Positions 38,323 to 60,906 of a stretch of 64,000 bases of DNA are shown in pieces. Both the position numbers and the translations under genes were made by a program. Source of the DNA: a virus. Its lineage: Duplodnaviria > Caudoviricetes. Each line of letters begins with the position of its first letter. Within the stretch, counting starts at the first letter, position 1. The stretch is from the IMG/VR virus record IMGVR_UViG_2687453538_000001, positions 1 to 64,000 of that record; one strand, written 5' to 3'. The notes beneath the pieces are model-generated. The model saw only the letters and a list, made by a program, of their open reading frames with translations, was not told the origin of the DNA and did no database searches.

Positions 38323-38567
38323 TGCCCCGTCTTCACCCAGCGGCGGATACGAAGCTCGCAACCACTGATGAGCGCGACGCCGTTCGCGCAACCGTAATGA
38401 GTCGCCCGACGCTTGCAGCCGCAGTGACACCGGCGCCGAGCCTTGGCTGGCTTCGGCTCCAGGTAGCGGATGTGCCGGCTGCTACTGCCAACTTGCCCCC
38501 ATCCATCGACCCCGCCGCGCATCGCTGCAGATCGGGCTGCCGGGGAAAGACTGTTCAAATCGGTCAT
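38319..38567 (-). CDS. Small Cys-rich hypothetical protein
   Basis: Overlapping start and stop with both neighbours. Confidence 0.55.
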   Translation of the reverse strand: MTDLNSLSPAARSAAMRGGVDGWGQVGSSSRHIRYLEPKPAKARRRCHCGCKRRATHYGCANGVALISGCELRIRRWVKTGQ

Positions 38568-39862
38568 TTCGAATCCTCGCTAGTAACAAATTCGGGATGG
38601 GTGCTAGAGGCCTTGTCCCCTGCGGCCTGCCCCTGAATCTGTGGGATTTCGGATAAGGCCTCTGTAAGGCCATGAATGGCACCAAAGCCGATGCCGTCTA
38701 ACCAGGCGTGCCACTTCTCCAGGGCTACCCTGCGCTGCTGCATCGCTTGGGTGTGGATGTAGGTGCTGGCGATCTTGCCCAGTGAGTGGTTCAGCAGCAT
38801 CTCGCCGATGTGCCCGTCGATACCGAGGTCGGTCCATGTGCTGCGAGAGACTTTCCGCAGATCGTGGCTGGTCCACTCGCCCCGTCCCAGGTAGGTGAAT
38901 ACAGCGCTGGCCTGGCTCTCGCTCAGGCACCCGCCGCGACGACTTGGGAACAGGTACACGCCGTCGTACCCTTCGGCCTGCTGGATTGCCCGGTACCGGG
39001 TCAGAAGCGCACAGATCTGGTTGGTCAGCGGCAGCCGGTGCTCTGTACGGGTCTTGGCATTCGCTGCCGGGATGAACCACTCGCCAGCCGTGACCGACAC
39101 CTCGCTCCAGCGGGCCTTTCGGGTCTCGCCAATGCGGGTACCGTGCGCCAGCATCATCAGCGCAAGCATGGCCTTGGCTGGGGTTTCCTCGAAGACCTCG
39201 GCCAGCTGCTGCATCACATCAGCCAGGTGCACCGCTCGCAGACGGGCCGACTTCGGCAGGATCTTGGCCTTGGTGAAGTCGCTGAAGCGCATCCCGCCCA
39301 TGGGGTCAGACTCGATCAGTCCCAGGCGCTTGGCTTGCTTGAACGCGGTCAGCAGCAGCGCGAACATCTGGCGCAGGTAGGACAGCGACACATCAGCCTG
39401 GGCGGGCCACATCAGTTGCTTGTCCAGCGTATCGGCAGTCACGTCTGCCAAGGGCAGATCATCCAGGCGCGGCTTCAGGTGCTGAGCAATGGCGGATCGT
39501 GCGCCGGCCTTGCGCTTCACCGACAGCGAGCGGTCACGAGCCATCCGGTCGCCGTACCAGTCCAGCAGCTGACCCACGGAGGCCATACTCGACACCACCA
39601 GAGCGGTGGCCGGTTCGCGCAGCAGGCGCTGACGCAGTGCGGGCAGCTCAGTCAGCACCGTGGCGACGTTCAGCTCTGGCCAGCGGGCGACCGGCACCCA
39701 TTTCTTGCCGCGCACCAGGTGCCAGGTGGCGCGCTCGCGGTTGCTCCAGAAGCGCAGGTATAGGCCAGGGTGACGCGGGTCGCGCAGATCGCGCACGGAC
39801 ACGTCGGCGGCCTGGCGGCGCACCTCAGCCTCGCTGAACTTCACTTCGCGTGTTGCGCTCAT
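38564..39862 (-). CDS. Second tyrosine recombinase (nin region)
   Basis: GTRIGE, KT, SHDLRK, LLNH, TY catalytic set; N-terminal arm-binding-like domain. Confidence 0.9.
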   Translation of the reverse strand: MSATREVKFSEAEVRRQAADVSVRDLRDPRHPGLYLRFWSNRERATWHLVRGKKWVPVARWPELNVATVLTELPALRQRLLREPATALVVSSMASVGQLLDWYGDRMARDRSLSVKRKAGARSAIAQHLKPRLDDLPLADVTADTLDKQLMWPAQADVSLSYLRQMFALLLTAFKQAKRLGLIESDPMGGMRFSDFTKAKILPKSARLRAVHLADVMQQLAEVFEETPAKAMLALMMLAHGTRIGETRKARWSEVSVTAGEWFIPAANAKTRTEHRLPLTNQICALLTRYRAIQQAEGYDGVYLFPSRRGGCLSESQASAVFTYLGRGEWTSHDLRKVSRSTWTDLGIDGHIGEMLLNHSLGKIASTYIHTQAMQQRRVALEKWHAWLDGIGFGAIHGLTEALSEIPQIQGQAAGDKASSTHPEFVTSEDSK

Positions 39863-41395: not shown

Positions 41396-42242
41396 AGGTA
41401 CCGTCCTCGCGCTCGGTAAGGCCGTCGGTGTAGTCGCGGTCACTGAAACCGTGGTGGCGGCTATTGGGGTTGGATTTGGCAGGCAGCTGGGCGGCGAGAC
41501 GCTTGATCACCCAGTCCACCTCGAACCCGCGCCAGCCGTTCTCGACAGCAACCTCTAGGGCCTGAGCGGGCTGGATGCCGAACGCCTTGCACTGCTCTAG
41601 CTTGGCGTTCAGGCCGGACCAGATCCGGGCAGTCACCGGGGCTTTTGCGGCCTTGCGGACAGTCAGGTAGTCAGCGATCAGGGACTCATCCAGGCCGTGC
41701 GGGTTGTCGGCCAGCATGGCGGCCTTCCCGAATGGCGCCTTGCGGTCAGCCTTGGCCGGAGTCGGCTGCTCATCGCTGGGGGGGCATGTATTTTCTTTCG
41801 AAGAAAGAAATACATAGGGGGTTAAATTCTTAGAATAAAGAAGGGACTCGGCGGTTTTGGTCTGTTTCGGCTCTTCTCCGATTCGGACCACTTGAGCCGA
41901 CTCGGCTGTTTTGGTCTGTTTCGGCTCGGTGACGTAGACCCAGTCTTTCGGGTCATTCACGCCGATATCACCCCTGGCACCACCCTCGCGGAACAACACA
42001 CGGCGGCGCAGCAGACTGGAGATCGCCTTGGATACGGAATCAGGGTGGGCGTTGATGGCTTTTGCGATGTCGGTCGCCGGGATGCGCTGGGCGCCCGCGC
42101 CGAAGTTGATGGTGGCCTTGGCCACGTACAGCACAATCTTCATCTCCCTGGCCGGAAGATCGATAGCCAACAGGCCATCCATGAGCTGGTTGTCCATCCG
42201 GGTGAACCCCCTGGACTTGTCAATTTGAACGATGTTTGTCAT
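41385..42242 (-). CDS. Replication initiator, lambda O-like
   Basis: GFTRMDNQL N-terminus; internal iterons. Confidence 0.9.
   Translation of the reverse strand: MTNIVQIDKSRGFTRMDNQLMDGLLAIDLPAREMKIVLYVAKATINFGAGAQRIPATDIAKAINAHPDSVSKAISSLLRRRVLFREGGARGDIGVNDPKDWVYVTEPKQTKTAESAQVVRIGEEPKQTKTAESLLYSKNLTPYVFLSSKENTCPPSDEQPTPAKADRKAPFGKAAMLADNPHGLDESLIADYLTVRKAAKAPVTARIWSGLNAKLEQCKAFGIQPAQALEVAVENGWRGFEVDWVIKRLAAQLPAKSNPNSRHHGFSDRDYTDGLTEREDGTYEI
41787..41927. repeat. Putative origin: iterons and AT-rich tract inside O
   Basis: GACTCGGC(G/T)GTTTTGGTCTGTTTCGGCTC at 41845-41873 and 41899-41927, next to AT-rich 41787-41842. Confidence 0.75.
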
Positions 42243-42314
42243 GCTCTGATCTCGTTTGAAGCTGTAGAGAAAGCCGCCCTGCCAGGCGGTTTTTTTTCGC
42301 CTACTGTTCAGCCA

Positions 42315-42330
42315 CTGGATGCATGAACAG
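42315..42330. promoter_or_regulatory. LexA-like box between cro and O
   Basis: CTGGATGCATGAACAG (CTG-N10-CAG). Confidence 0.5.
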
Positions 42331-42362
42331 CGGGGCGGACTCACTACTGGCGCAAGGCCGGG

Positions 42363-42587
42363 TCACGCATAATTCTTTTCGTCAGATGCTGGCCGTTGCA
42401 GCACAGGACGACTCGGAAACGGACGTACTTCCTCCCCCGTCAACGTCCCGTCGTCGTTCTGGATCACAAAGATCACCCGACCAGCCTTCATCGCCTTTGC
42501 GATGGCTGGTGCGCTAACGTCAAGCCCCTTGGCGACGGCGGTCTGGCCGATTCGCTCAACAAGCTCAGGCAGCAGTGTTCGGTTCAT
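42363..42587 (-). CDS. cro: Cro-like repressor
   Basis: GQTAVAKGLDVSAPAIAKA HTH; EVRPFPS; divergent from cI. Confidence 0.88.
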   Translation of the reverse strand: MNRTLLPELVERIGQTAVAKGLDVSAPAIAKAMKAGRVIFVIQNDDGTLTGEEVRPFPSRPVLQRPASDEKNYA

Positions 42588-42619
42588 GGCATTGCCTCAG
42601 TGAAGAATGCTCACGATAT

Positions 42620-42681
42620 TAACCGCCGGTTAGCATTTCTTCAACACCGGCGGTTGAGGCAGTCAAATTAACCTCCGGTTA
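42620..42681. promoter_or_regulatory. OR operators (three sites)
   Basis: TAACCGCCGGTTA 42620-42632, ACACCGGCGGTTG 42644-42656, TAACCTCCGGTTA 42669-42681. Confidence 0.8.
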
Positions 42682-42691
42682 AATTCCGCGA

Positions 42692-43579
42692 ATGACGAAA
42701 AAGAAAGATCTATCCCCAGAACTGAAGGCCGAGTGTGAGGCAGCGAAAAGGCTGTTCACCCAGAAAAAAAACGCACTTGGCCTGACACAGGCAAAGGTGG
42801 CTGAGGCTGCCGACATTTCGCCCGCAGGTGTAGCCATGTACTTGAATGGCACAAACCCCCTGAATGCGAAGTTTGCCGTCGTGCTGTCCAGGCTCCTTCA
42901 AGAGCCCGTGGACCGGTTCAGCCCCCGGCTAGCTGCTGAGCTTTCACAGATGCAGGGTGCCCAAGTGAAAAGCGCTGACGGCTTAAGGAGCACGGCCGCT
43001 GAGAAAGTGCTGGAGATGCTACGTAAGCACGGCGGAAAATCGCTGGATGCGACGGCTCAGGACAAGATTGCCAAGGCGGTAGCTGACAGTCTTTCCGAAG
43101 CATCAGCGCCGTCAACCGGCGCCGCACAGGCCGCTATCATGGTCATGGCAGGCCATGGAGATATCTCCATCCCGCAATACGATATCCGCGCGGCAATGGG
43201 CCATGGCCAGGTGCCAGCCGAGTACAGCGAAGTCATCCGCAACGTGGTGATTCGCGAAGAAGTACTGCGCGAGAAAGGCGTGACCTACACCGCCGCCCAG
43301 GCCTTGGCGATGATCACCGGCTGGGGTCAGAGCATGGAAGGGACGATCAATGACAAGGATCCTGTAATCGTTGATCGCGGAGTTAATGACTACCAAGGTG
43401 AAGGCGTTTATGTGCTCACTTGGCACGGGGATCTTCTCATAAAGCGCGTCCAGCGGATGGATGGGGATCACGTTTGGCTGATATCTGACAACAAAAATTA
43501 CGAAAAGCAGTCAGCTCGCATCGAAGACGTAACAATACACGCAAAAGTGCTGCTAGTTTGGAATGCAAGAAAAATCTAG
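42692..43579 (+). CDS. cI: CI-like repressor (HTH + S24 peptidase)
   Basis: LGLTQAKVA HTH; GQSMEGTI and LLIKR catalytic Ser/Lys. Confidence 0.93.
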   Translation: MTKKKDLSPELKAECEAAKRLFTQKKNALGLTQAKVAEAADISPAGVAMYLNGTNPLNAKFAVVLSRLLQEPVDRFSPRLAAELSQMQGAQVKSADGLRSTAAEKVLEMLRKHGGKSLDATAQDKIAKAVADSLSEASAPSTGAAQAAIMVMAGHGDISIPQYDIRAAMGHGQVPAEYSEVIRNVVIREEVLREKGVTYTAAQALAMITGWGQSMEGTINDKDPVIVDRGVNDYQGEGVYVLTWHGDLLIKRVQRMDGDHVWLISDNKNYEKQSARIEDVTIHAKVLLVWNARKI

Positions 43580-43603
43580 AGATTAGCCGATAGTTAGGAT
43601 GCC

Positions 43604-44680
43604 ATGGATAAATTCATTTTTGAGGGACTCTCAATAGAGAGGATGATTGCGCATACAATCTTTCCCCGAACCAAGGAAGGCGTGCTGGTGCCGCCCCAAC
43701 TTTCTGAGGAATTAATCGATCTAGATGTCGATTCTAAAGACTTGCTCCAGGTGCGCATCACCGATGCACTAGGGAGCAACTCGCACGGGATCGAGATCAA
43801 CGCAGAAAAGACTGATGCGTCCTCCTTCATGCAAAAATCTGCAGAAGCTCTAAGGGCCGAAAAAGCACGCTTCATTGAGCTTTCGAGAGTAATCGCAGAG
43901 GATTTGGCGGATGCACAGACCAATCCGAAATGGCCGGGTGGCGTCCTAATTGTCCTGTCCGGGCGTGTTGGCAATAACCAACACCCCTTCCTTGCGGCGA
44001 TTAAGGCAGAAACCGACAAAGGCTTTAATATCGTTGAAAGAAACGGCTCCGTCAGCTTAACCCTAATAAAAAAGATGTTGCTATCTCAAACTCAGCGTCT
44101 TTACAAGATAGGGGTCAGCGTCGAGATTTCCTATACTGCTCCGGTAGCAAGCATTTATCAGCCCGAAAACTACAGGTTTTTCCTGTTCGACCACCTGCTA
44201 ACGACAACCGAAACGAAAGCAGCTGCAGCGTATTTCTACAACGCCTTCCTTGGCATGAACATCCTCAAATCTTCTAAGTTCCAGACTAGGAAATTCTACG
44301 AAGAAACAAAAACCTATATTTCAGGTTTAGCTCTGGAGCAACCGGAGAAGAGTGAGCTGCTCGAGGCATTGCGTTCCGAGCTTAGAAGCAACAAAGGAAC
44401 CATGTCCGTACCAGCTTTCGCCGAGGAACACTTGCCAGCTGATTCAAGACAGCATTACATCGACACCATGGCTGCAAAAGGGCTTCCGGATACAGCCATG
44501 GTCAAGGATCTTGCATACATCAAAGCTAAACTGCGAAGACCCCGCCGAGTAGATTTCAGCACGGGTGTAAAAATACAGGTACCCGCTGATTTGAATTTCC
44601 AAGATCATGTGCAGACCTTGCGGCAGGAAGGCGGATATACAGACGTCCGCATCAAAGGCGTAGTTGAGAGTCGAGAGTAA
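43604..44680 (+). CDS. Nucleoid-associated protein (YejK/NA37-like)
   Basis: 358 aa; IERMIAH, PGGVLIV, AAIKAE, RLYKIG, AYFYNAFLG, QTRKFY pattern. Confidence 0.72.
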   Translation: MDKFIFEGLSIERMIAHTIFPRTKEGVLVPPQLSEELIDLDVDSKDLLQVRITDALGSNSHGIEINAEKTDASSFMQKSAEALRAEKARFIELSRVIAEDLADAQTNPKWPGGVLIVLSGRVGNNQHPFLAAIKAETDKGFNIVERNGSVSLTLIKKMLLSQTQRLYKIGVSVEISYTAPVASIYQPENYRFFLFDHLLTTTETKAAAAYFYNAFLGMNILKSSKFQTRKFYEETKTYISGLALEQPEKSELLEALRSELRSNKGTMSVPAFAEEHLPADSRQHYIDTMAAKGLPDTAMVKDLAYIKAKLRRPRRVDFSTGVKIQVPADLNFQDHVQTLRQEGGYTDVRIKGVVESRE

Positions 44681-45645
44681 TGAATATTGAGCAGTTCAAA
44701 GACTATCTTCTGGCTGCTCAGCCCAGCCTTAATTTGTGGGGAAGTTTTGTAGAAAAAAACGTCAAGAAAATATCTAAAACCAATAGCATAAATCTCCAGA
44801 TACTTTCATCTAGAGTCAAAGAAATTGATTCAGCAATAGGCAAACTGACTCGAAAATCGTATAACAACCCCCTGAAAGACATGACCGACCTAGTTGGTGT
44901 CCGAGCTGTTTGCCTCTTGTCGCCCGATGTAGAAAAACTATGCCAAGCAATGATGCTACCCGTTTGGGACATACAGAAATCAAGAGACACCTCAAAAGAG
45001 TATGAGGACGCACCGGATAAATTTGGATATCAGTCCCATCATTTCGAGATACGCCCCAAATGCGATATACAAATCGCAGGCACTACGATCACTCCCGACA
45101 TATGTTGTGAGTTACAGATCAGAACATTGATGCAGCACGCCTATGCTGAGGTGGTTCACGATAGTATTTATAAAAGCTCTTGGAAAGTGCCTAGCCGCGC
45201 GGTAAGATTCGTATCCAGCAGTGCTGCATTAATCGAAACGGCGGACCACCTTTTTTGTGAAACCATGAACATTTTAGAGTCAGAATCGAAAGTCCGAGGC
45301 GAGCTGCTTGAGGAGCTCACGGACATCTACGATTCCAAGGTGGGGATTTCTAAGTTTAAAGATCAGAAATTTAACATGCTTGTTCTTGATCAGTTATCCG
45401 GCGTTATCCACCAAGACACACCGGATAAAATTCGCCACCTTCTAAATGAGCGCAGCTTCATTCAAGAAAGGGTGAAGTCCCGTCTAGACTCCAATGCATT
45501 TTGGTCTCAGCCAGTATCGATACTTGCATACCTCTTAGCTGTCGAGCACCCCTCTTCACTTAAAGAGCTCTGGCCCTATGCAGAGTCAGAAGACTCACTT
45601 GAACTCATCTATAGCGACTTAGGTAAAAAGTACCATAGCCATTAA
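44680..45645 (+). CDS. RelA/SpoT-domain small alarmone synthetase
   Basis: RVKEIDSAIGK, DLVGVR, GYQSHH, ELQIRTLMQHAYAEVVHDSIYK. Confidence 0.92.
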   Translation: MNIEQFKDYLLAAQPSLNLWGSFVEKNVKKISKTNSINLQILSSRVKEIDSAIGKLTRKSYNNPLKDMTDLVGVRAVCLLSPDVEKLCQAMMLPVWDIQKSRDTSKEYEDAPDKFGYQSHHFEIRPKCDIQIAGTTITPDICCELQIRTLMQHAYAEVVHDSIYKSSWKVPSRAVRFVSSSAALIETADHLFCETMNILESESKVRGELLEELTDIYDSKVGISKFKDQKFNMLVLDQLSGVIHQDTPDKIRHLLNERSFIQERVKSRLDSNAFWSQPVSILAYLLAVEHPSSLKELWPYAESEDSLELIYSDLGKKYHSH

Positions 45646-45659
45646 TTAGCGCACGCCAC

Positions 45660-45989
45660 TCAGAAAGGCGCCTTCTCCTCTTCATGACGGACCAGGTCAA
45701 GGTCCACTTCCCTCTCGATCACCCGATCGTCATCCGTAGCAGCATCCCACTGCAGAATCACCGACCCGTCATCACAGAACGTCATGTCCAGGCCGTCAGT
45801 TTCCGAAAGCAGCTCCATGATTCGTACCCAGTCCTGATCGCTATCCGTATCCAGTTGATGAATCAGAACCTTCCTTCCGAACTGGGCCAGCGGCGAATTG
45901 ATCATTGCTGAGATCCTCAGCCCCAGCTTTTCCAATCCCGTCAGCGCCTCGCCAGGCGCCGACATCGCTAATCCTTGTGCCGATCCCAT
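45660..45989 (-). CDS. DUF1654-like protein
   Basis: EKLGLRISAMINSP.AQ..DW; LexA box upstream. Confidence 0.8.
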   Translation of the reverse strand: MGSAQGLAMSAPGEALTGLEKLGLRISAMINSPLAQFGRKVLIHQLDTDSDQDWVRIMELLSETDGLDMTFCDDGSVILQWDAATDDDRVIEREVDLDLVRHEEEKAPF

Positions 45990-46005
45990 TTTCATACCTC
46001 CTATA

Positions 46006-46021
46006 CTGTATATCCGTACAG
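46006..46021. promoter_or_regulatory. LexA (SOS) box
   Basis: CTGTATATCCGTACAG. Confidence 0.85.
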
Positions 46022-46059
46022 ATTCAGGCAATCTTAGCGCGCCTTTTCAGAAAAATAAT

Positions 46060-46100
46060 TAACCGGCGGTATTGACGTAATGGTTACCGGCGGTTAATTT
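46060..46100 (+). promoter_or_regulatory. pL-equivalent promoter with two OL operators
   Basis: TTGACG-17-TAATTT; operators TAACCGGCGGTAT 46060-46072 and TTACCGGCGGTTA 46084-46096 match OR. Confidence 0.82.
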
Positions 46101-46355
46101 TGCTGCCAGCCGGATAGATACTGGCCGCAGCAAAGGCAGCGATGGACAGGCCTCAACAGTCCAGAGGGGTGGCAACTGCCCCGGGTGTGCAGGGTAAAGC
46201 ACCGAGATCAGTTATCCGGCGGGAAGGTCCGCGGTCGGAGTCAACAACCAGAAGAGTGCCGCGCAACCGACTCCAGTAGAGGGCCGCGGCTGAAGGTTTC
46301 ACTGGCTGGCCTTCGAGGTAGAGGGCCAGACGGGAAATCAGCCGGAGAAAACACC

Positions 46356-47030
46356 ATGGCCGTAAACATCAGCAAATTAACCATCACGACTCCCGTAGCC
46401 ACTTCCTCAACCAACCATGTTGCACTTGAGCTAAGCGGAGCAGAAGCGATCGCGCAGTTCCCGGAAATTGTTACTGCCTTGCCCGATGGCTCTATTCGCT
46501 TCACTGCGCCGACTAAAGGCGCCTCGAGCAAAAGCACACGTCGCACTCGTTGTGAGTGGTCTGAGGCCACCAACTGGACCCTGGCCAGCGCGGCAAATCA
46601 CCGAAATCACCAGCAGATGGCGCTTACCAAGGTCAACTTTGCTCAGAAGGTCGTGATCTCGCAGATGCATGTTAGAGGCGATGACAGCCCACCGGTGAAG
46701 GTGTTCTGGAACAAGGGCAACATCACGATGGGCTTTCGCACCACCTACAACCAAGCCACCCCGGTGAACACCACCGTACTCAAGGGTGTGCCGCTCGGGG
46801 CAAAGTTCACCGTTGCCATCGACGTTACGACACATGGCCTGGTGACTGTTTCAGCCCAGTGCAACGGTGTGTCCGGTTCTTCAGGAACCCTGCAGCTCGA
46901 CGACACCTGGGACTCTCGCCTGTTCGAGTTCCATGGCGGCGTCTACAACCAGGTCGATTACACCGACTCGACTCCCGCCGCGGATGGCTCGATCTGCGTC
47001 ATCAGCAGTCTCTCGCTGACCCATAGCTGA
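46356..47030 (+). CDS. Polysaccharide lyase family 7 (alginate lyase-like)
   Basis: RTRCEW, VISQMH, EFHGGVYNQ correspond to PL7 RxELR, QIH, YFKAGxYxQ. Confidence 0.8.
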   Translation: MAVNISKLTITTPVATSSTNHVALELSGAEAIAQFPEIVTALPDGSIRFTAPTKGASSKSTRRTRCEWSEATNWTLASAANHRNHQQMALTKVNFAQKVVISQMHVRGDDSPPVKVFWNKGNITMGFRTTYNQATPVNTTVLKGVPLGAKFTVAIDVTTHGLVTVSAQCNGVSGSSGTLQLDDTWDSRLFEFHGGVYNQVDYTDSTPAADGSICVISSLSLTHS

Positions 47031-49246: not shown

Positions 49247-50083
49247 TTACCATTTTATAAGCCCACAGTTCCTCAAGTGAGCATCGCCTACTCGCTTGGG
49301 GCAGTTTGTGAATAGCGAGTATTGCTCCATCAATTCCTTCAGTCTTTGCCCGTCGTCACTTATACCATAAAGCAACACACACTCTACTTCGGCCGGCGTA
49401 AGCAGAGACTTGATAATCAACACGTATCGCTCTTTCAATACCGCGTCATCTAAATCACACCCATCGACGTATGACAGTAACTGCTCTAAAATAGTGAAGA
49501 ATTTTAGTCCATTCTCTTGAGCAGCCGCCAACATTTTGTTCGCGTGCTCCCTAAACAAAAATTCTCTCTCTCGCCTAGTTAAATTACCTTTTGACTCGTT
49601 GAAAACCCAGTCAATCCTATCAACGTTGTATTTAAAAGAAAGCCTCTGCGCCACAGCAATCCCAGTGAACACTCTCTGTTCTTCATAGAGGCTCATTGTT
49701 TCTAGCGCTTTAGAGTACAGATCAATCAAACCAAAAAATACAGACTCAAAGCTTTGCTGCTTGAATATTTTCGTCTGTTCCTTCTGCATCGAGATAGCTG
49801 CACTTGCCTCTGAGCGAGCCTCCTTAACCTCCTCAGACTGATATTTTAGGCTTTTCACAACAGCAATCAAAGCCATGAAGCTTAGTACAGGATTCAGCAC
49901 GCCACCCACATAATCACCAAACTGCCCCCACACTTCTTTACTTGAAGAAAACCAACCAAAAAAATTTACAACGTACGCACTAATTACAACAACAACAAAA
50001 ACTCCAGCACATGTAATCATCATCAAGCTAAAGTCTAACTTTAGCTTTGTAAACGCCGCTTTGAGACTTTGATGTATATCCAT
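49247..50083 (-). CDS. Putative abortive-infection membrane protein
   Basis: TM-WGQFGDYVGGVLNP-TM, QSFESVFF, C-terminal helical domain; AT-rich. Confidence 0.7.
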   Translation of the reverse strand: MDIHQSLKAAFTKLKLDFSLMMITCAGVFVVVVISAYVVNFFGWFSSSKEVWGQFGDYVGGVLNPVLSFMALIAVVKSLKYQSEEVKEARSEASAAISMQKEQTKIFKQQSFESVFFGLIDLYSKALETMSLYEEQRVFTGIAVAQRLSFKYNVDRIDWVFNESKGNLTRREREFLFREHANKMLAAAQENGLKFFTILEQLLSYVDGCDLDDAVLKERYVLIIKSLLTPAEVECVLLYGISDDGQRLKELMEQYSLFTNCPKRVGDAHLRNCGLIKW

Positions 50084-50602: not shown

Positions 50603-51310
50603 CTAGGCATCCCCCGCCTGATTGGCTTGAGCAGTATCTATTGCCACCCGCTCAACCTCAAATATCAGAGAGTTAGCAAGCTCAATGACAGCGTGCACTT
50701 CAGCAACGGTTGGCTGCACGTCATGATGCGCATAGTTATTACGGTAAACGCCGTAAAAACCACTCAGTAAATTGCGGTAAGCGGTCTTCCTTGGGCCATC
50801 CAAATTTGTGAGAACTGATCCACCGCCGAATATAGTATTAACAAGCTCATCGCCATCTATATTCTGCGCAACTAAAAATCTTTGCCTAAGATGACTAGAA
50901 AGAATTGGGAAAACTTGCCTTATCGCGGCCGCATGGTGCCCGCCATCCAGTAGAGGTATGACGCCCTCCCTCAAGCGCCCGTGCAGGCGCACGGCCTGAT
51001 CTTCCAAGGCGAATAGCGAGGCGAACCCACTGGGCATATCACTGTAGATAATGTCCTTGATATCGCTGAAGCATGAATCTTTGAATCCCTGATTCAATCT
51101 CAACTCTATGAACCAGAGGTGACGACCGATATTGCCGAAAGCCCTTGGTTCAACGCCATTTAGCGTCAACAGCCTGTCCACCTCGACCTGCAGGGAAGTG
51201 TATTTTTCATAAAGCTCTGGAGGCTCCGAAAACTCCCAGCTCCGATGCATATCGAGTGCAATCTCATATGCTAATTGATATTGCCGAATCGCCGCCGTCA
51301 AAGCGCTCAT
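50603..51310 (-). CDS. TIGR02391-like protein with RxxxxH motif
   Basis: LH..L...GH..A..LR..DG.ELV..F..G....YRNNYAH. Confidence 0.72.
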   Translation of the reverse strand: MSALTAAIRQYQLAYEIALDMHRSWEFSEPPELYEKYTSLQVEVDRLLTLNGVEPRAFGNIGRHLWFIELRLNQGFKDSCFSDIKDIIYSDMPSGFASLFALEDQAVRLHGRLREGVIPLLDGGHHAAAIRQVFPILSSHLRQRFLVAQNIDGDELVNTIFGGGSVLTNLDGPRKTAYRNLLSGFYGVYRNNYAHHDVQPTVAEVHAVIELANSLIFEVERVAIDTAQANQAGDA

Positions 51311-51364
51311 GTCGTATCCCTGTGATTTGAATCCTGCTATCAGCATATCCGCGAAGGTATCCCC

Positions 51365-51976
51365 ATGCCCACAGAAAACCGATCCAGCAACACAGAGATG
51401 GTCAGCGTGCCGCGCGAGCATGAACTGAAAATTCGACAGACCCCGCTGGCTGACTTGCTCAGCGGCCTCAAGACCGGCGAGGTCCGGGATTGCTCGGATC
51501 GTAATTTCGCCGTGGGCGACACGGTTCTGCTCCGCGAGATCGATGATGCCCTCGACTACACCGGCACGGTTCTACGCCGGACTATCACCCATGTCCAAAA
51601 GCACTATGGCCTGCCGGATCACTTGTGCGTGCTGAGCTACGGCCAGCCAGCCCAGCACCAGGGCGAGCCGGTGGGCGAAGTCGTGGTATTCGGCAAGGGT
51701 CTGCATGAGATTGCTTGGGCTGCTGGGCGCATGCCAAGGCTCGGTGCCAAGCTCTACACCCACCCAGCGCCAGCAGATCCTGGCGAGCCTGAGCGGCTGC
51801 GAGCTGCTTTGAAGTTCTACGCCGACCGGGACCACTTCGCTGAAGACATTGGCAACGAATGGGACAGCGTGAGCGGCGAGCCCGCGAACATCCTCTGGCA
51901 CGAACATGAAGCTTGGTTTGTGGAGGATGGCTCGATTGCCAGGGCTGCGTTGTCGGAAAACTCCGAGGCGGGCTAA
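51365..51976 (+). CDS. DUF3850/ASCH-like domain protein
   Basis: HELKI..SGLKTGEVR..DRNFAVGD.VLLRE..YTG. Confidence 0.78.
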   Translation: MPTENRSSNTEMVSVPREHELKIRQTPLADLLSGLKTGEVRDCSDRNFAVGDTVLLREIDDALDYTGTVLRRTITHVQKHYGLPDHLCVLSYGQPAQHQGEPVGEVVVFGKGLHEIAWAAGRMPRLGAKLYTHPAPADPGEPERLRAALKFYADRDHFAEDIGNEWDSVSGEPANILWHEHEAWFVEDGSIARAALSENSEAG

Positions 51977-54762: not shown

Positions 54763-55812
54763 ATGCGCCCAAGGAAGACCGAGAATCGCGACCTGCCACC
54801 AGGCATGTATCGTCGCAAAAGACAAAAAGCCAATGGCAAGGTGTGGGAGGCTCTGTACTACAGGGACAAGTCGGGCAAGGACATTTTCCTTGGCAGTGAC
54901 CTGGTGAAGGCCAAGCTGATGTGGGCAGAGCTCGAAGCCAAGTCGGTACCGAAAGAACTGACAACGATGAAAGGGATCTTCGACGAGTACCTGTTGAAGA
55001 TCATCCCAGGCAAGGCCGCCAGGACCCAGAAAGACAACATCTACGAGCTTAAGCAACTGCGCACTGTGTTCGATTCGGCGCCGATCGATGCAATCACGCC
55101 GGCCATGATCGCGCAATACCGCGACTCAAGGTCGGCCAAAACTAGAGCGAACAGGGAAATCGCACTGCTCTCGCACGTTTTCAACACCGCAAGGGAATGG
55201 GGGCTCACCACCCGGGACAACCCGTGCCTGGGCGTGAGGAAGAACAAGGAGAAACCGCGCGACTTCTATGCCAACGAAGCGGTGTGGCAGGCGGTATATG
55301 AGGAGGCCCCACAGGAGCTTAAGGATGCGATGGACCTGGCGTACCTGACCGGCCAGCGGCCATCGGACGTTCTGTCCATGCGAAAGGACGATATGGACGG
55401 GATCTACCTGCAGGTCAGCCAAGGCAAGACCGGCAAGCGACTGAGGATCGTCCTGGAGGTGGACGGAGCGAAGAACAGTCTTGGGCTGCTGCTGGAGCGG
55501 ATTATGCGCAGGACCAGCGAGCACCTGTCGCCGTTCTTCATCATCAACGAGCACGGCAAGCGCATGAGCTGGCCGATGTTGCGCAACCGGTGGGCGGACG
55601 CCCGGGAGGCCGCCAGGGTGAAAGCTGACGTCGAGAAGAAGCCAGACCTAGCAAACCGAATCGCCCAGTTCCAGTTCCGAGATATCCGACCGAAGGCGGC
55701 CTCGGAGATAAACGATCTGGGCGAGGCAAGCGTGCTGCTGGGGCACTCCAAAGAGGGAATCACGGAGCGTGTCTATCGCCGTGTTGGGGCTATCGCGAAG
55801 CCCTCGAAATAG
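54763..55812 (+). CDS. int: Phage tyrosine integrase
   Basis: TGQR, KTG, FRDIRPK, LLGH, VY; adjacent to att. Confidence 0.95.
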   Translation: MRPRKTENRDLPPGMYRRKRQKANGKVWEALYYRDKSGKDIFLGSDLVKAKLMWAELEAKSVPKELTTMKGIFDEYLLKIIPGKAARTQKDNIYELKQLRTVFDSAPIDAITPAMIAQYRDSRSAKTRANREIALLSHVFNTAREWGLTTRDNPCLGVRKNKEKPRDFYANEAVWQAVYEEAPQELKDAMDLAYLTGQRPSDVLSMRKDDMDGIYLQVSQGKTGKRLRIVLEVDGAKNSLGLLLERIMRRTSEHLSPFFIINEHGKRMSWPMLRNRWADAREAARVKADVEKKPDLANRIAQFQFRDIRPKAASEINDLGEASVLLGHSKEGITERVYRRVGAIAKPSK

Positions 55813-58952: not shown

Positions 58953-60581
58953 CTAGTAGTCGACTTGCACCTCGTGCACGCCCGCGTTGGTGCGCCAATG
59001 GTCCTGCCGGGCTTCTGTCGGTTTCCCGACTATCCGGCCAATGCGCACAGGGGTTTGGGCGATTGCGCCGGCACCGGAGTCGATGAAGTCATCGTCCTGG
59101 TCGGTGAGCGCTGGGTTGAAGTCGCGCATCTGGTCCCACAGCGGACCGCGCAGCACAGAGACGTGAGCCCACAGGAAGCGGGCAGAAAGGGGGGACTCCA
59201 GTGCGTCGAGAATGCGCTTCTGCTTGTTGGTGCTGCTGTGCTCTTCCCCTACCCCACAGCCGGTGCCCTTGAGCGCTTGGCGCAGGATGGTGGGCACGAA
59301 GCCGCCCGGGCCGTTTGTCTCCACCACAACGCGCGGAATCTGGTACTTGATCACCAGGTCGCGAACTTGCTGGACCTGGCCACCTGTAATCCTGCTGGTT
59401 GCTTCGTCGAAGGTGGCGATCTCACCCTCAAGGGCCTTGCACACCTGCCAGTACAGCTGGCCGCGCGCGTCGGTGAGGATCAGCGAGAACGCCGACGCAT
59501 CGGACTTGATCTTGCCCAGTGAGCAATCCCAGTAGGCGGCAGCGCCGACAATCTGGATGTTGCCCAGGTACATGGCGCATTCGCCGTTTGCGTAGCGAAT
59601 CTCCGGCTCAAGGTCGTACGGGATCATGCGCGCCGGGTCGAGACGAACCTCGGTCACTGGCTTGCTGTGCAACTGGTACTGGCTGTCCCATTCGTTGATT
59701 GTCCGGGTCTCGCGGCGGCGCTTCTCCAGCTCCACCATGTCGAATCGGTTGGGCCAGGCGCTGCCGGCGTAGCAGTCAATCAGGGTTCCAGGGGCTTCCA
59801 GGAACTCCAGGGTGCCGTCAGCGTAGCGGTAGTCCTTGTCCTCCACCAGCACACGCGCCAGCTTGCCGATGCCGGAGAACACCACCTCGGGCCTGAACGG
59901 CACGGCATAGGTCGTGTCCTTGGCCAGCTCGATGCGATGCTCGTCGGCGAACATGCGGATGGTCAGGCAATCCGCGCCCATCGCCTCCAGCTCGTCGTAC
60001 AGGCTGTCGTGGGTGTGGGGTGTGCCGATGAATAGCTTGCTGCCGCCCGGCACCAGAATGTGTGTCTGCTCGCCCAGCCGGTACCGAAGCTTCTCCCGCG
60101 CCTCGGGCGTCTGGATGTTGCGTGGCACCTCCACGTCATCGTTCTGGCATTCGTCAGCACGGGCCGAGGTGACGTTCGACAAGATGCCCTTGGCGAACAT
60201 CGAGGCGTTCCGGAAGTCGGCGGCGCCCTCAACCCACCACTGCTCGACTGTGCCCTGGTTGGGCGGCAGCAGGTGGCGGGTAAGCGGGTGGTTGCGAATG
60301 ACGTTTTGCGTGTCGCGGCTGGTCTTGTAGGCCGTGCCGTCGGCCTCGGACTGGTGCAGGATGCGAAACGTTGGGTTCCGGTAGTACCGCCAGGCGTTGT
60401 AGATCGCCAGGATGGTGGACTTGCCGAAGCCCCGGAAGCAACGCAAAACGGCCAGAGACCCTTTGGCCTCCAGCCATATCAGTGCCCTGACGTGAATGTC
60501 CGGCACCTCCCACCGCATCCGCTTTGACCAAATCAGGAAGAAGACCAGCAGGCTTACTTTCTTCTCCGGCTCATTGGGCAT
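58953..60581 (-). CDS. Terminase large subunit
   Basis: CFRGFGKST, NDDVE, IGTP, VETNG, DDDFIDS. Confidence 0.9.
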   Translation of the reverse strand: MPNEPEKKVSLLVFFLIWSKRMRWEVPDIHVRALIWLEAKGSLAVLRCFRGFGKSTILAIYNAWRYYRNPTFRILHQSEADGTAYKTSRDTQNVIRNHPLTRHLLPPNQGTVEQWWVEGAADFRNASMFAKGILSNVTSARADECQNDDVEVPRNIQTPEAREKLRYRLGEQTHILVPGGSKLFIGTPHTHDSLYDELEAMGADCLTIRMFADEHRIELAKDTTYAVPFRPEVVFSGIGKLARVLVEDKDYRYADGTLEFLEAPGTLIDCYAGSAWPNRFDMVELEKRRRETRTINEWDSQYQLHSKPVTEVRLDPARMIPYDLEPEIRYANGECAMYLGNIQIVGAAAYWDCSLGKIKSDASAFSLILTDARGQLYWQVCKALEGEIATFDEATSRITGGQVQQVRDLVIKYQIPRVVVETNGPGGFVPTILRQALKGTGCGVGEEHSSTNKQKRILDALESPLSARFLWAHVSVLRGPLWDQMRDFNPALTDQDDDFIDSGAGAIAQTPVRIGRIVGKPTEARQDHWRTNAGVHEVQVDY

Positions 60582-60906
60582 TGCTGCGCTGCATCCGCTC
60601 GATGATGGCCAGGGCTTCGCGCTCAGCCGCCGCAATCTCGCCGTCGAGTTCGTCAATCTTTGCGCCAGCCTCTAGTGCTGGCTTCTGCCGGTTGAGGATA
60701 CCGGCGATGTTCACCACCTTGAGCAGCAGCGTCATGGTTGCGGCGGCGTTCTTCTTGCACCAGTACCTGTCGCCCCGCTCCTGCTGGGTCAGCTCGCCAG
60801 GGGCCTTGTCAGCACCAGGCCACTGGTGCGGATCAACCTCGGTGATCACCACCTCGCCCAGGCGCTCGGTCAGCGCCTGCAGGCGCACAATCTGGTCGTC
60901 ACGCAT
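60571..60906 (-). CDS. Putative terminase small subunit
   Basis: 111 aa helical; overlaps terL start. Confidence 0.55.
   Translation of the reverse strand: MRDDQIVRLQALTERLGEVVITEVDPHQWPGADKAPGELTQQERGDRYWCKKNAAATMTLLLKVVNIAGILNRQKPALEAGAKIDELDGEIAAAEREALAIIERMQRSNAQ

Follow-up and report, generated by a model that had tools for sequence, protein, structure and literature searches.

A prophage-borne pair of a nucleoid-associated protein and a small alarmone synthetase, encoded directly after cI, is probably a member of the PANGU type I defence family

The analysis of a 64-kb window, which comprises the first 64 kb of an IMG/VR provirus record of 93,443 nt (IMGVR_UViG_2687453538_000001) with open reading frames (ORFs) called by translation table 11, reveals a pair of overlapping genes directly downstream of a cI-like repressor gene. 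The first encodes a YejK/NA37-type nucleoid-associated protein (NAP) and the second a RelA/SpoT-type small alarmone synthetase (SAS). Judged by its architecture against the published description, and not by comparison with the sequences tested there, the pair is probably a prophage-borne member of PANGU type I, a phage defence system named in a preprint of 6 April 2026 (Li et al., bioRxiv 10.64898/2026.04.06.716658). Because this preprint already describes the pairing, which the preliminary description of this DNA had put forward as an undescribed system, the window presents a new example and not a new kind. The two genes are as follows:

43604..44680, plus strand: gene 1, Pag1A-like YejK/NA37-type nucleoid-associated protein, 358 aa, 40.2 kDa (Pfam, PHROGs, AlphaFold2 model and a fold match in the Protein Data Bank, PDB)
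44680..45645, plus strand: gene 2, Pag1B/gRel-like small alarmone synthetase, 321 aa, 36.7 kDa (Pfam, PHROGs, AlphaFold2 model and PDB fold matches)

PANGU systems are two-gene operons with a YejK-like NAP (bioRxiv 10.64898/2026.04.06.716658). In type I, the NAP Pag1A (NA37 in the methods of the preprint) is encoded bicistronically with Pag1B, a gRel toxic SAS (toxSAS) in which a helical linker joins an N-terminal toxSYNTH domain to an acidic, "DNA-mimicking" C-terminal domain. By the operon rule of the methods, the NAP gene precedes the toxSAS gene and the intergenic distance is <40 bp. The type I systems tested there came from Ferrimonas futtsuensis, Pseudomonas aeruginosa and Escherichia coli; plaque counts of T4 or Bas34 were reduced by 3-4 logs, protection depended on the two genes together and on the G-loop Tyr, which is Y129 in the protein from Ferrimonas, and neither gene was toxic, alone or together. 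By itself, Pag1B forms a tetramer without activity; Pag1A, which binds long DNA with DNA-contact residues K200/R203/K204, is dimeric. The two (Pag1A/Pag1B entry PDB 9UFP) associate via the C-terminal domain in a 2:1 Pag1A:Pag1B complex that converts ATP and GTP, GDP or GMP into AMP and (pp)pGpp and gave no tRNA labelling. According to the same preprint, Pag1A departs from the nucleoid on infection, T4 escapes via denA (EndoII) mutations that spare the host chromosome, and a DNA-binding-defective Pag1A mutant renders the pair toxic. In the mechanism reported there, host-DNA degradation by the phage frees the NAP, which then switches on pppGpp synthesis, and infection is aborted. A SLATT protein is encoded as well in some type I operons (bioRxiv 10.64898/2026.04.06.716658).

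The window pair fits each sequence-level feature of this description except the acidity of the C-terminal domain. The order is NAP then toxSAS, and the junction, a single shared base within TAATG between the gene 1 stop and the gene 2 start on the same strand, lies well inside the <40 bp rule; the first protein has the NA37/YejK fold, the gene 2 model combines a toxSYNTH domain, a long helix and a C-terminal domain, the sizes of the two proteins (40.2/36.7 kDa) are close to those of the P. aeruginosa system (40.6 and 37.5 kDa), and the G-loop Tyr is conserved (Y117 here, Y129 in Ferrimonas). The likeness extends to the cross-phylum spread, to the co-variation of the two proteins, and to the occasional SLATT/DUF4231 third gene among the relatives of the window pair. 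Two differences stand out. The C-terminal domain of the window protein is only weakly acidic, and the pair is found directly behind cI in the immunity region of a prophage; the preprint does not discuss such a setting, and its main text contains "prophage" 0 times. Beyond bioRxiv 10.64898/2026.04.06.716658, no other description of a pairing of NAP and small alarmone synthetase was found in the literature. Among the systems validated in E. coli, one that contains a YejK domain is mentioned in a passage of the DefensePredictor paper (PMC13092281), and Atkinson 2011 (PMC3153485) lists gRel as a gamma-proteobacterial SAS subgroup, with which the Pseudomonas names borne by the closest proteins to gene 2 are in keeping.

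The assignment of the gene 1 product rests on agreement between profile and structural comparisons, in line with the YejK/NA37-like pattern first noticed in its sequence. The Pfam NA37 profile matched residues 15-329 well above its cut-off (E 3.6e-14, 53.3 bits versus 24.6), and phrog_1974, a PHROGs family of unknown function, matched the full length (E 1.3e-58). These observations were further strengthened by AlphaFold2 models of both proteins, built from 104-sequence family alignments: the gene 1 model (pLDDT 90.0) had E. coli YejK (9be2) as its sole significant Foldseek match in the PDB (E 2.2e-09, 357 columns, 15% identity). YejK is thus the best solved fold for gene 1, from which it differs by this low identity and by being a housekeeping, stand-alone NAP. 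Basic residues are conserved across the gene 1 family at R13, R22, R51, K134, R165, K168, K249, R261, K301, K309, R311, R314, R315 and K351. At the level of sequence, gene 1 found 0 matches in the PDB and none in NCBIfam.

Gene 2 carries all of the synthetase motifs that had been recognised by inspection. Pfam RelA_SpoT matched residues 44-167 (E 1.3e-17), the Pfam scan found no hydrolase domain, and phrog_32462, again a PHROGs family of unknown function, covered the full length (E 2.8e-85). Across the 104 sequences, the key motif residues R45, K47, K55, D70, R75, Y117, S119, H121, E144, Q146, R148, Q152 and H153 are invariant and S51, G73 and E157 are at least 90% conserved; in all, Y117, the G-loop Tyr of GYQS, and 19 further positions are invariant. 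The AlphaFold2 model (pLDDT 95.4) is divided into a mixed alpha/beta catalytic domain (1-165), a long helix (172-220) and a helical C-terminal domain (229-313), so that the C-terminus, previously put at ~110 aa, is actually ~150 aa long. The C-terminal domain itself found no PDB fold match. The closest PDB folds to the catalytic domain are the Firmicute (p)ppGpp synthetases SAS1/RelQ, of which that of Bacillus subtilis is best (E 5e-10), and SAS2/RelP (together E 5e-10 to 2e-08, identity 20-24%), enzymes that differ in lacking the helix and the C-terminal domain. A PDB sequence search returned six distinct chains (E 4e-08 to 8e-07), among them B. subtilis SAS1/YjbM and SAS2/YwaC and two streptococcal GTP pyrophosphokinases, and the best NCBIfam match, below threshold, was YjbM.

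This ranking bears on the reaction that gene 2 would catalyse. The same sensor-effector logic could be coupled to another chemistry, either pyrophosphorylation of tRNA 3' ends, as by CapRel, FaRel2 and PhRel2, or synthesis of (p)ppApp, as by FaRel and Tas1, in place of (pp)pGpp. toxSAS chemistry does differ between subfamilies, CapRel (rank 39, E 2.9e-07) and FaRel (rank 48) are both significant fold matches of gene 2, and its identity to the tested orthologues is likely well below 70%. However, the closest solved folds are (p)ppGpp synthetases, the best NCBIfam match points the same way, and the gRel enzyme of the preprint gave no tRNA labelling and used G nucleotides as sole acceptors (bioRxiv 10.64898/2026.04.06.716658), and we therefore regard a different chemistry as unlikely. 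For the PANGU type I assignment, (pp)pGpp is the product to be expected.

The pairing was then viewed across relatives of gene 2 (169 matches), of which full-length ones, ~320-335 aa long, are found in gamma- and beta-proteobacteria and in further groups. The survey covered 160 loci, 80 from one-genome-per-species contigs (at least 583 relatives there, among 600 matches listed) and 80 from IMG/VR. In 141 of them, tblastn with gene 1 detects a homologue of it as the immediate upstream neighbour, in the same orientation, which bears out the expectation of a conserved pair. Among the 19 loci without a paired gene 1, 6 are cut short by a contig end that leaves no space for an upstream gene, and 9 (L152-L160) match the catalytic domain alone and therefore belong to other SAS families. 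Both ORFs could be resolved in 139 pairs, and in 108 of these the genes overlap by 4 or 1 nt. At 90% NAP identity the pairs fall into 110 clusters, and the pairwise identities of the two proteins are correlated (Pearson 0.85, Spearman 0.65, 5356 pairs), much of which could be given by shared ancestry alone. By the titles of the database records, the family extends over Proteobacteria, Verrucomicrobiota, Firmicutes, Planctomycetota, Leptospira and Meiothermus, and it is rare within groups (5 of 401 genomes of one genus at E<=1e-30; 8 of 401 genomes of one order at E<=1e-20). A conserved pair with such a sporadic, cross-phylum distribution has the pattern of a mobile accessory module. Non-redundant upstream neighbours (n=104) include an S24 domain in 4 cases, DUF4231 in 8 and SLATT_4 in 4, the others being restriction-modification parts or assorted phage genes, and the after-repressor context is thus a minority across the whole pair family. 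A megablast of 42600-46100 against GenBank phages returned no match.

The tight overlap of the two genes, typical of toxin-antitoxin pairs, is also what would be expected of a type II toxin-antitoxin system in which a constitutively toxic toxSAS is held by the NA37 protein as an antitoxin that is lost during infection, and all earlier-studied toxSAS are indeed toxins held by an adjacent or fused antitoxin (bioRxiv 10.64898/2026.04.06.716658). Yet the partner here, with its 358 aa, YejK fold and conservation from phylum to phylum, does not resemble a small, labile antitoxin, and the orthologous systems behave otherwise: neither gene nor the pair is toxic, the synthetase alone is inactive in vitro and requires the NAP, and it is a DNA-binding-defective NAP that makes the pair toxic (bioRxiv 10.64898/2026.04.06.716658). 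A toxin-antitoxin arrangement is accordingly judged very unlikely, and PANGU type I, with an activating NAP, is retained as the preferred assignment.

Several observations weigh against that assignment. The PADLOC 2023 models, which the preliminary description had suggested consulting, offer nothing for gene 1 (0 families), and for gene 2 they return PDC-S33 only (E 1.2e-19), with residues 26-177 aligned to profile positions 53-201 of 349, which is the catalytic part alone. In the neighbourhood survey, 4 of the 19 unpaired loci (L065, L115, L150 and L075) have room for an upstream gene and a match to the C-terminal domain but no detectable NAP gene, and are real exceptions; in L065 (5319-6023) the synthetase gene is truncated beside an insertion-sequence-like ORF, and in L115 an unrelated 224-aa gene lies upstream of the synthetase in a phage context. 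A protein-mode search with gene 2 of 50,697 GenBank phage records found 7 records, none with at least 80% query cover and all matching the catalytic domain only, so no full-length relative. Since the C-terminal domain is mildly acidic here (net charge -5 over the helix/linker and -2 over 221-321; pI 5.06 for 186-321 and 5.47 for 205-321) and is non-negative in 27 of the 104 family members, with a negative net charge in the other 77, the "DNA mimic" feature is not clearly present. Finally, the validated Pag1A/Pag1B proteins are likened to the window pair by description alone and not by sequence, the function of the window proteins is transferred from orthologues, and the PANGU preprint (bioRxiv 10.64898/2026.04.06.716658) is not peer-reviewed.

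Carrying the mechanism over from the orthologues of the preprint, we infer binding, chemistry, trigger, protection and co-transcription with cI for the window pair as follows. In a lysogen both proteins would be made, probably from the cI transcript, with the NAP dimer held on chromosomal DNA and the synthetase kept as an inactive oligomer. A superinfecting lytic phage that degrades the host chromosome would free the NAP, which would then bind the C-terminal domain of the synthetase, and the resulting complex would convert ATP and GTP, GDP or GMP into AMP and (pp)pGpp. Transcription and translation would halt and the infection would be aborted. The earlier guess that a DNA-binding partner controls a toxic synthetase for defence appears largely right by this analogy; of its two options, that the partner restrains or triggers the enzyme, the orthologues favour triggering, in that the NAP activates, and not restraint, and the cue proposed at the time, phage DNA or proteins, would have to give way to the loss of intact host DNA.

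The genomic setting of the pair agrees with the account first given of it, in which two AT-richer genes start 24 bp after the cI stop, overlap by TAATG and occupy the position of lambda rexAB. The cI stop codon TAG ends at 43579 and the gene 1 ATG follows 24 nt later on the same strand, and GC content is 0.43-0.51 over 43.6-45.6 kb, that is, over both genes, versus 0.55-0.69 in the flanks. The surrounding features are as follows:

42363..42587, minus strand: cro-like small repressor gene, 74 aa, divergent from cI (phrog_35 "transcriptional repressor", E 1.8e-06)
42620..42681, no strand: OR-like operator set in the 104-nt cro-cI intergenic region, two palindromic 13-mers (42620-42632 and 42669-42681)
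42692..43579, plus strand: cI-like repressor, 295 aa (Pfam Peptidase_S24 1e-21 and HTH_3 1.3e-07; phrog_4 "transcriptional repressor" 5.9e-35; phrog_6201 "CI-like repressor" 4.2e-20)
43580..43603, plus strand: 24-nt spacer with an AGGA ribosome-binding site 5 nt ahead of the gene 1 ATG
45646..45659, no strand: right edge of the cargo cassette, where contigs of runs X19 and X15 depart from the window and GC climbs again
45660..46031, minus strand: DUF1654 gene, conserved right border of a variable slot (Pfam DUF1654, 2.4e-21)
46060..46096, no strand: OL-like operator set, two more copies of the OR-set 13-mer (46060-46072 and 46084-46096; 13-mer scan)

A scan with the 13-mer of 42620-42632 at up to 2 mismatches found 7 strand-wise matches at 4 places in the 64 kb, whereas shuffled sequences gave a mean of 0.53 and 0 of 100 reached 7. 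The right-hand copies fall in the gap to the right of the DUF1654 gene (46032-46184). The 13-mer sets are probably repressor operators of the OR and OL kind, and cI, the pair and the DUF1654 gene are bracketed by these OR- and OL-like sets, which places the pair within the immunity region, at the rexAB position by positional analogy. By eye, a weaker third copy of the 13-mer, with 3 mismatches, seems present at ~42645-42657 in the cro-cI gap (42588-42691).

Lambda RexAB is an exclusion function expressed in lysogens. The window pair shares with it the position after cI, on the same strand and within the immunity region between the OR and OL sets. Homology to RexA or RexB was considered and set aside, as the PADLOC scan gave no Rex model match for either protein and the likeness is positional only. 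CapRel, from prophage SJ46 (PDB 7ZTB), resembles the window synthetase in being a prophage-borne small RelA/SpoT enzyme with a regulatory C-terminal extension and the shared catalytic fold; as characterised in a passage of the preprint (bioRxiv 10.64898/2026.04.06.716658), it is a single-gene, fused toxSAS that senses a phage capsid protein and modifies tRNA. The window synthetase differs by its separate NAP partner, conserved in 141 of the 160 loci, and a CapRel-type fused toxSAS was ruled out by this conserved partner gene and by the poor whole-chain fit to 7ZTB (TM 0.41-0.44, rmsd 17.2 A). PADLOC PDC-S33 shares the RelA/SpoT catalytic domain, but is a single-gene candidate that leaves the C-terminal domain and the NAP uncovered; with only positions 53-201 of 349 of its profile matched, full-length membership of gene 2 was rejected.

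Expression of the pair together with cI is likely, because no promoter- or terminator-like site lies between them and the spacer is only 24 nt. Specifically, a consensus promoter scan of 42200-46300 gave 0 sites, and 7 terminator-like sites were found in the same interval (4.6 expected), all inside genes and none in the 24-nt spacer or elsewhere between cI and the pair. The contigs of DNA runs X2 and X3 cover the pair. Those of the metatranscriptome run X19, the only RNA run of four, cover parts of cI and the DUF1654 gene and not the pair, and are uninformative on its expression.

The region between cI and DUF1654 was surveyed in 80 of 228 IMG/VR relatives of cI (L172-L251; 47-95% identity to the window cI), in 76 of which a DUF1654 gene lies downstream of cI on the opposite strand. 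The slot so defined is empty (<350 nt) in 27 of these 76 proviruses and carries 0.35-3.5 kb of varied cargo in 49, amounting to 106 ORFs (70 aa or longer) that mostly share the orientation of cI and fall into 82 clusters at 50% identity, many of the ORFs being without any match. PADLOC matches among the 82 cargo representatives include gop-beta-cll, IetA/IetS, PD-Lambda-2, HEC-04, PDC-M53, PDC-S42, AriA, AbiL and NsnB, to which Pfam adds HicA/HicB, a HipA-like protein with DUF3037 and a staphylococcal-nuclease domain, and the defence context suspected for the window pair is thereby substantiated. The pair itself was absent from all 80 surveyed cI-relative loci. The same slot houses its closest relatives, L082 and L083 (72% and 67% identity), where DUF1654 follows and the S24 repressor in front is a different one (38-39% identity). 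From 45660 rightwards the X19 and X15 contigs match the window; left of that point their sequence is unrelated and terminator-like, and this divergence marks the right edge of the cassette.

The recurrence of recognised defence systems in this slot of related proviruses, together with the 3-4 log reduction of plaque counts by orthologous pairs (bioRxiv 10.64898/2026.04.06.716658) and a sporadic cross-phylum distribution that fits mobile defence cargo, makes it highly improbable that the pair is instead a lysogenic-conversion module by which the prophage tunes the host nucleoid and stringent response for lysogen fitness, even though prophage morons after repressors include non-defence genes and an alginate lyase gene lies 0.7 kb further on. 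We tentatively propose, as a possibility somewhat short of an even chance, that in a family of temperate phages of Pseudomonas the cI-DUF1654 stretch, flanked by OR- and OL-like operators, is reserved for defence cargo and transcribed from the promoter of the repressor itself, with PANGU type I as one interchangeable cargo.

Further from the pair, the minus strand to the left of cI carries the cro-like gene, an O-like initiator, a DnaC-like loader and further early genes. To the right, the DUF1654 gene (minus strand) is followed by alginate lyase, ParB-like and LuxR-type genes (plus strand), two more defence-like genes and a lambda-type integrase (54763-55812, plus strand). The alginate lyase gene (46353-47030, plus strand; Alginate_lyase2, E 8e-45) is the first gene past the OL-like sites, 0.7 kb from the pair, and is also found in L172, L216 and L082. 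The two defence-like genes encode a putAbiC-domain protein (E 1.9e-09) and a Hypoth_Ymh protein (E 1.3e-08), at 49247-50083 and 50603-51421 on the minus strand, in very AT-rich sequence (GC ~0.41), possibly a second island of defence genes towards the end of the prophage that carries the integrase. Within 3 kb of the lambda-type integrase stands a terminase-like gene of another module (58953-60656, minus strand), so the 93-kb record may hold two adjacent prophages. A 432-aa integrase-family protein (38564-39862, minus strand; phrog_1, E 2e-43) is encoded in the early-gene block, far from the lambda-type integrase. No tRNA genes were found in the 64-kb window.

Overall, the window offers a natural, prophage-borne example of PANGU type I, at the strength of the assignment given above, whose expression is probably tied to the lysogenic repressor. 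What is added here is the location in the immunity region and the cI-DUF1654 defence slot, neither of which alters the understanding of the PANGU system itself; the link between slot and repressor is not considered in the preprint (bioRxiv 10.64898/2026.04.06.716658). If the proposal is true, sensor and effector would be made only while cI is made, the lysogen would be guarded against superinfecting phages that degrade host DNA, and expression would end on prophage induction. More broadly, the cI-DUF1654 region is a compact hotspot in Pseudomonas proviruses where known and unassigned cargo alternate, and hence a practical place in which to seek defence genes.

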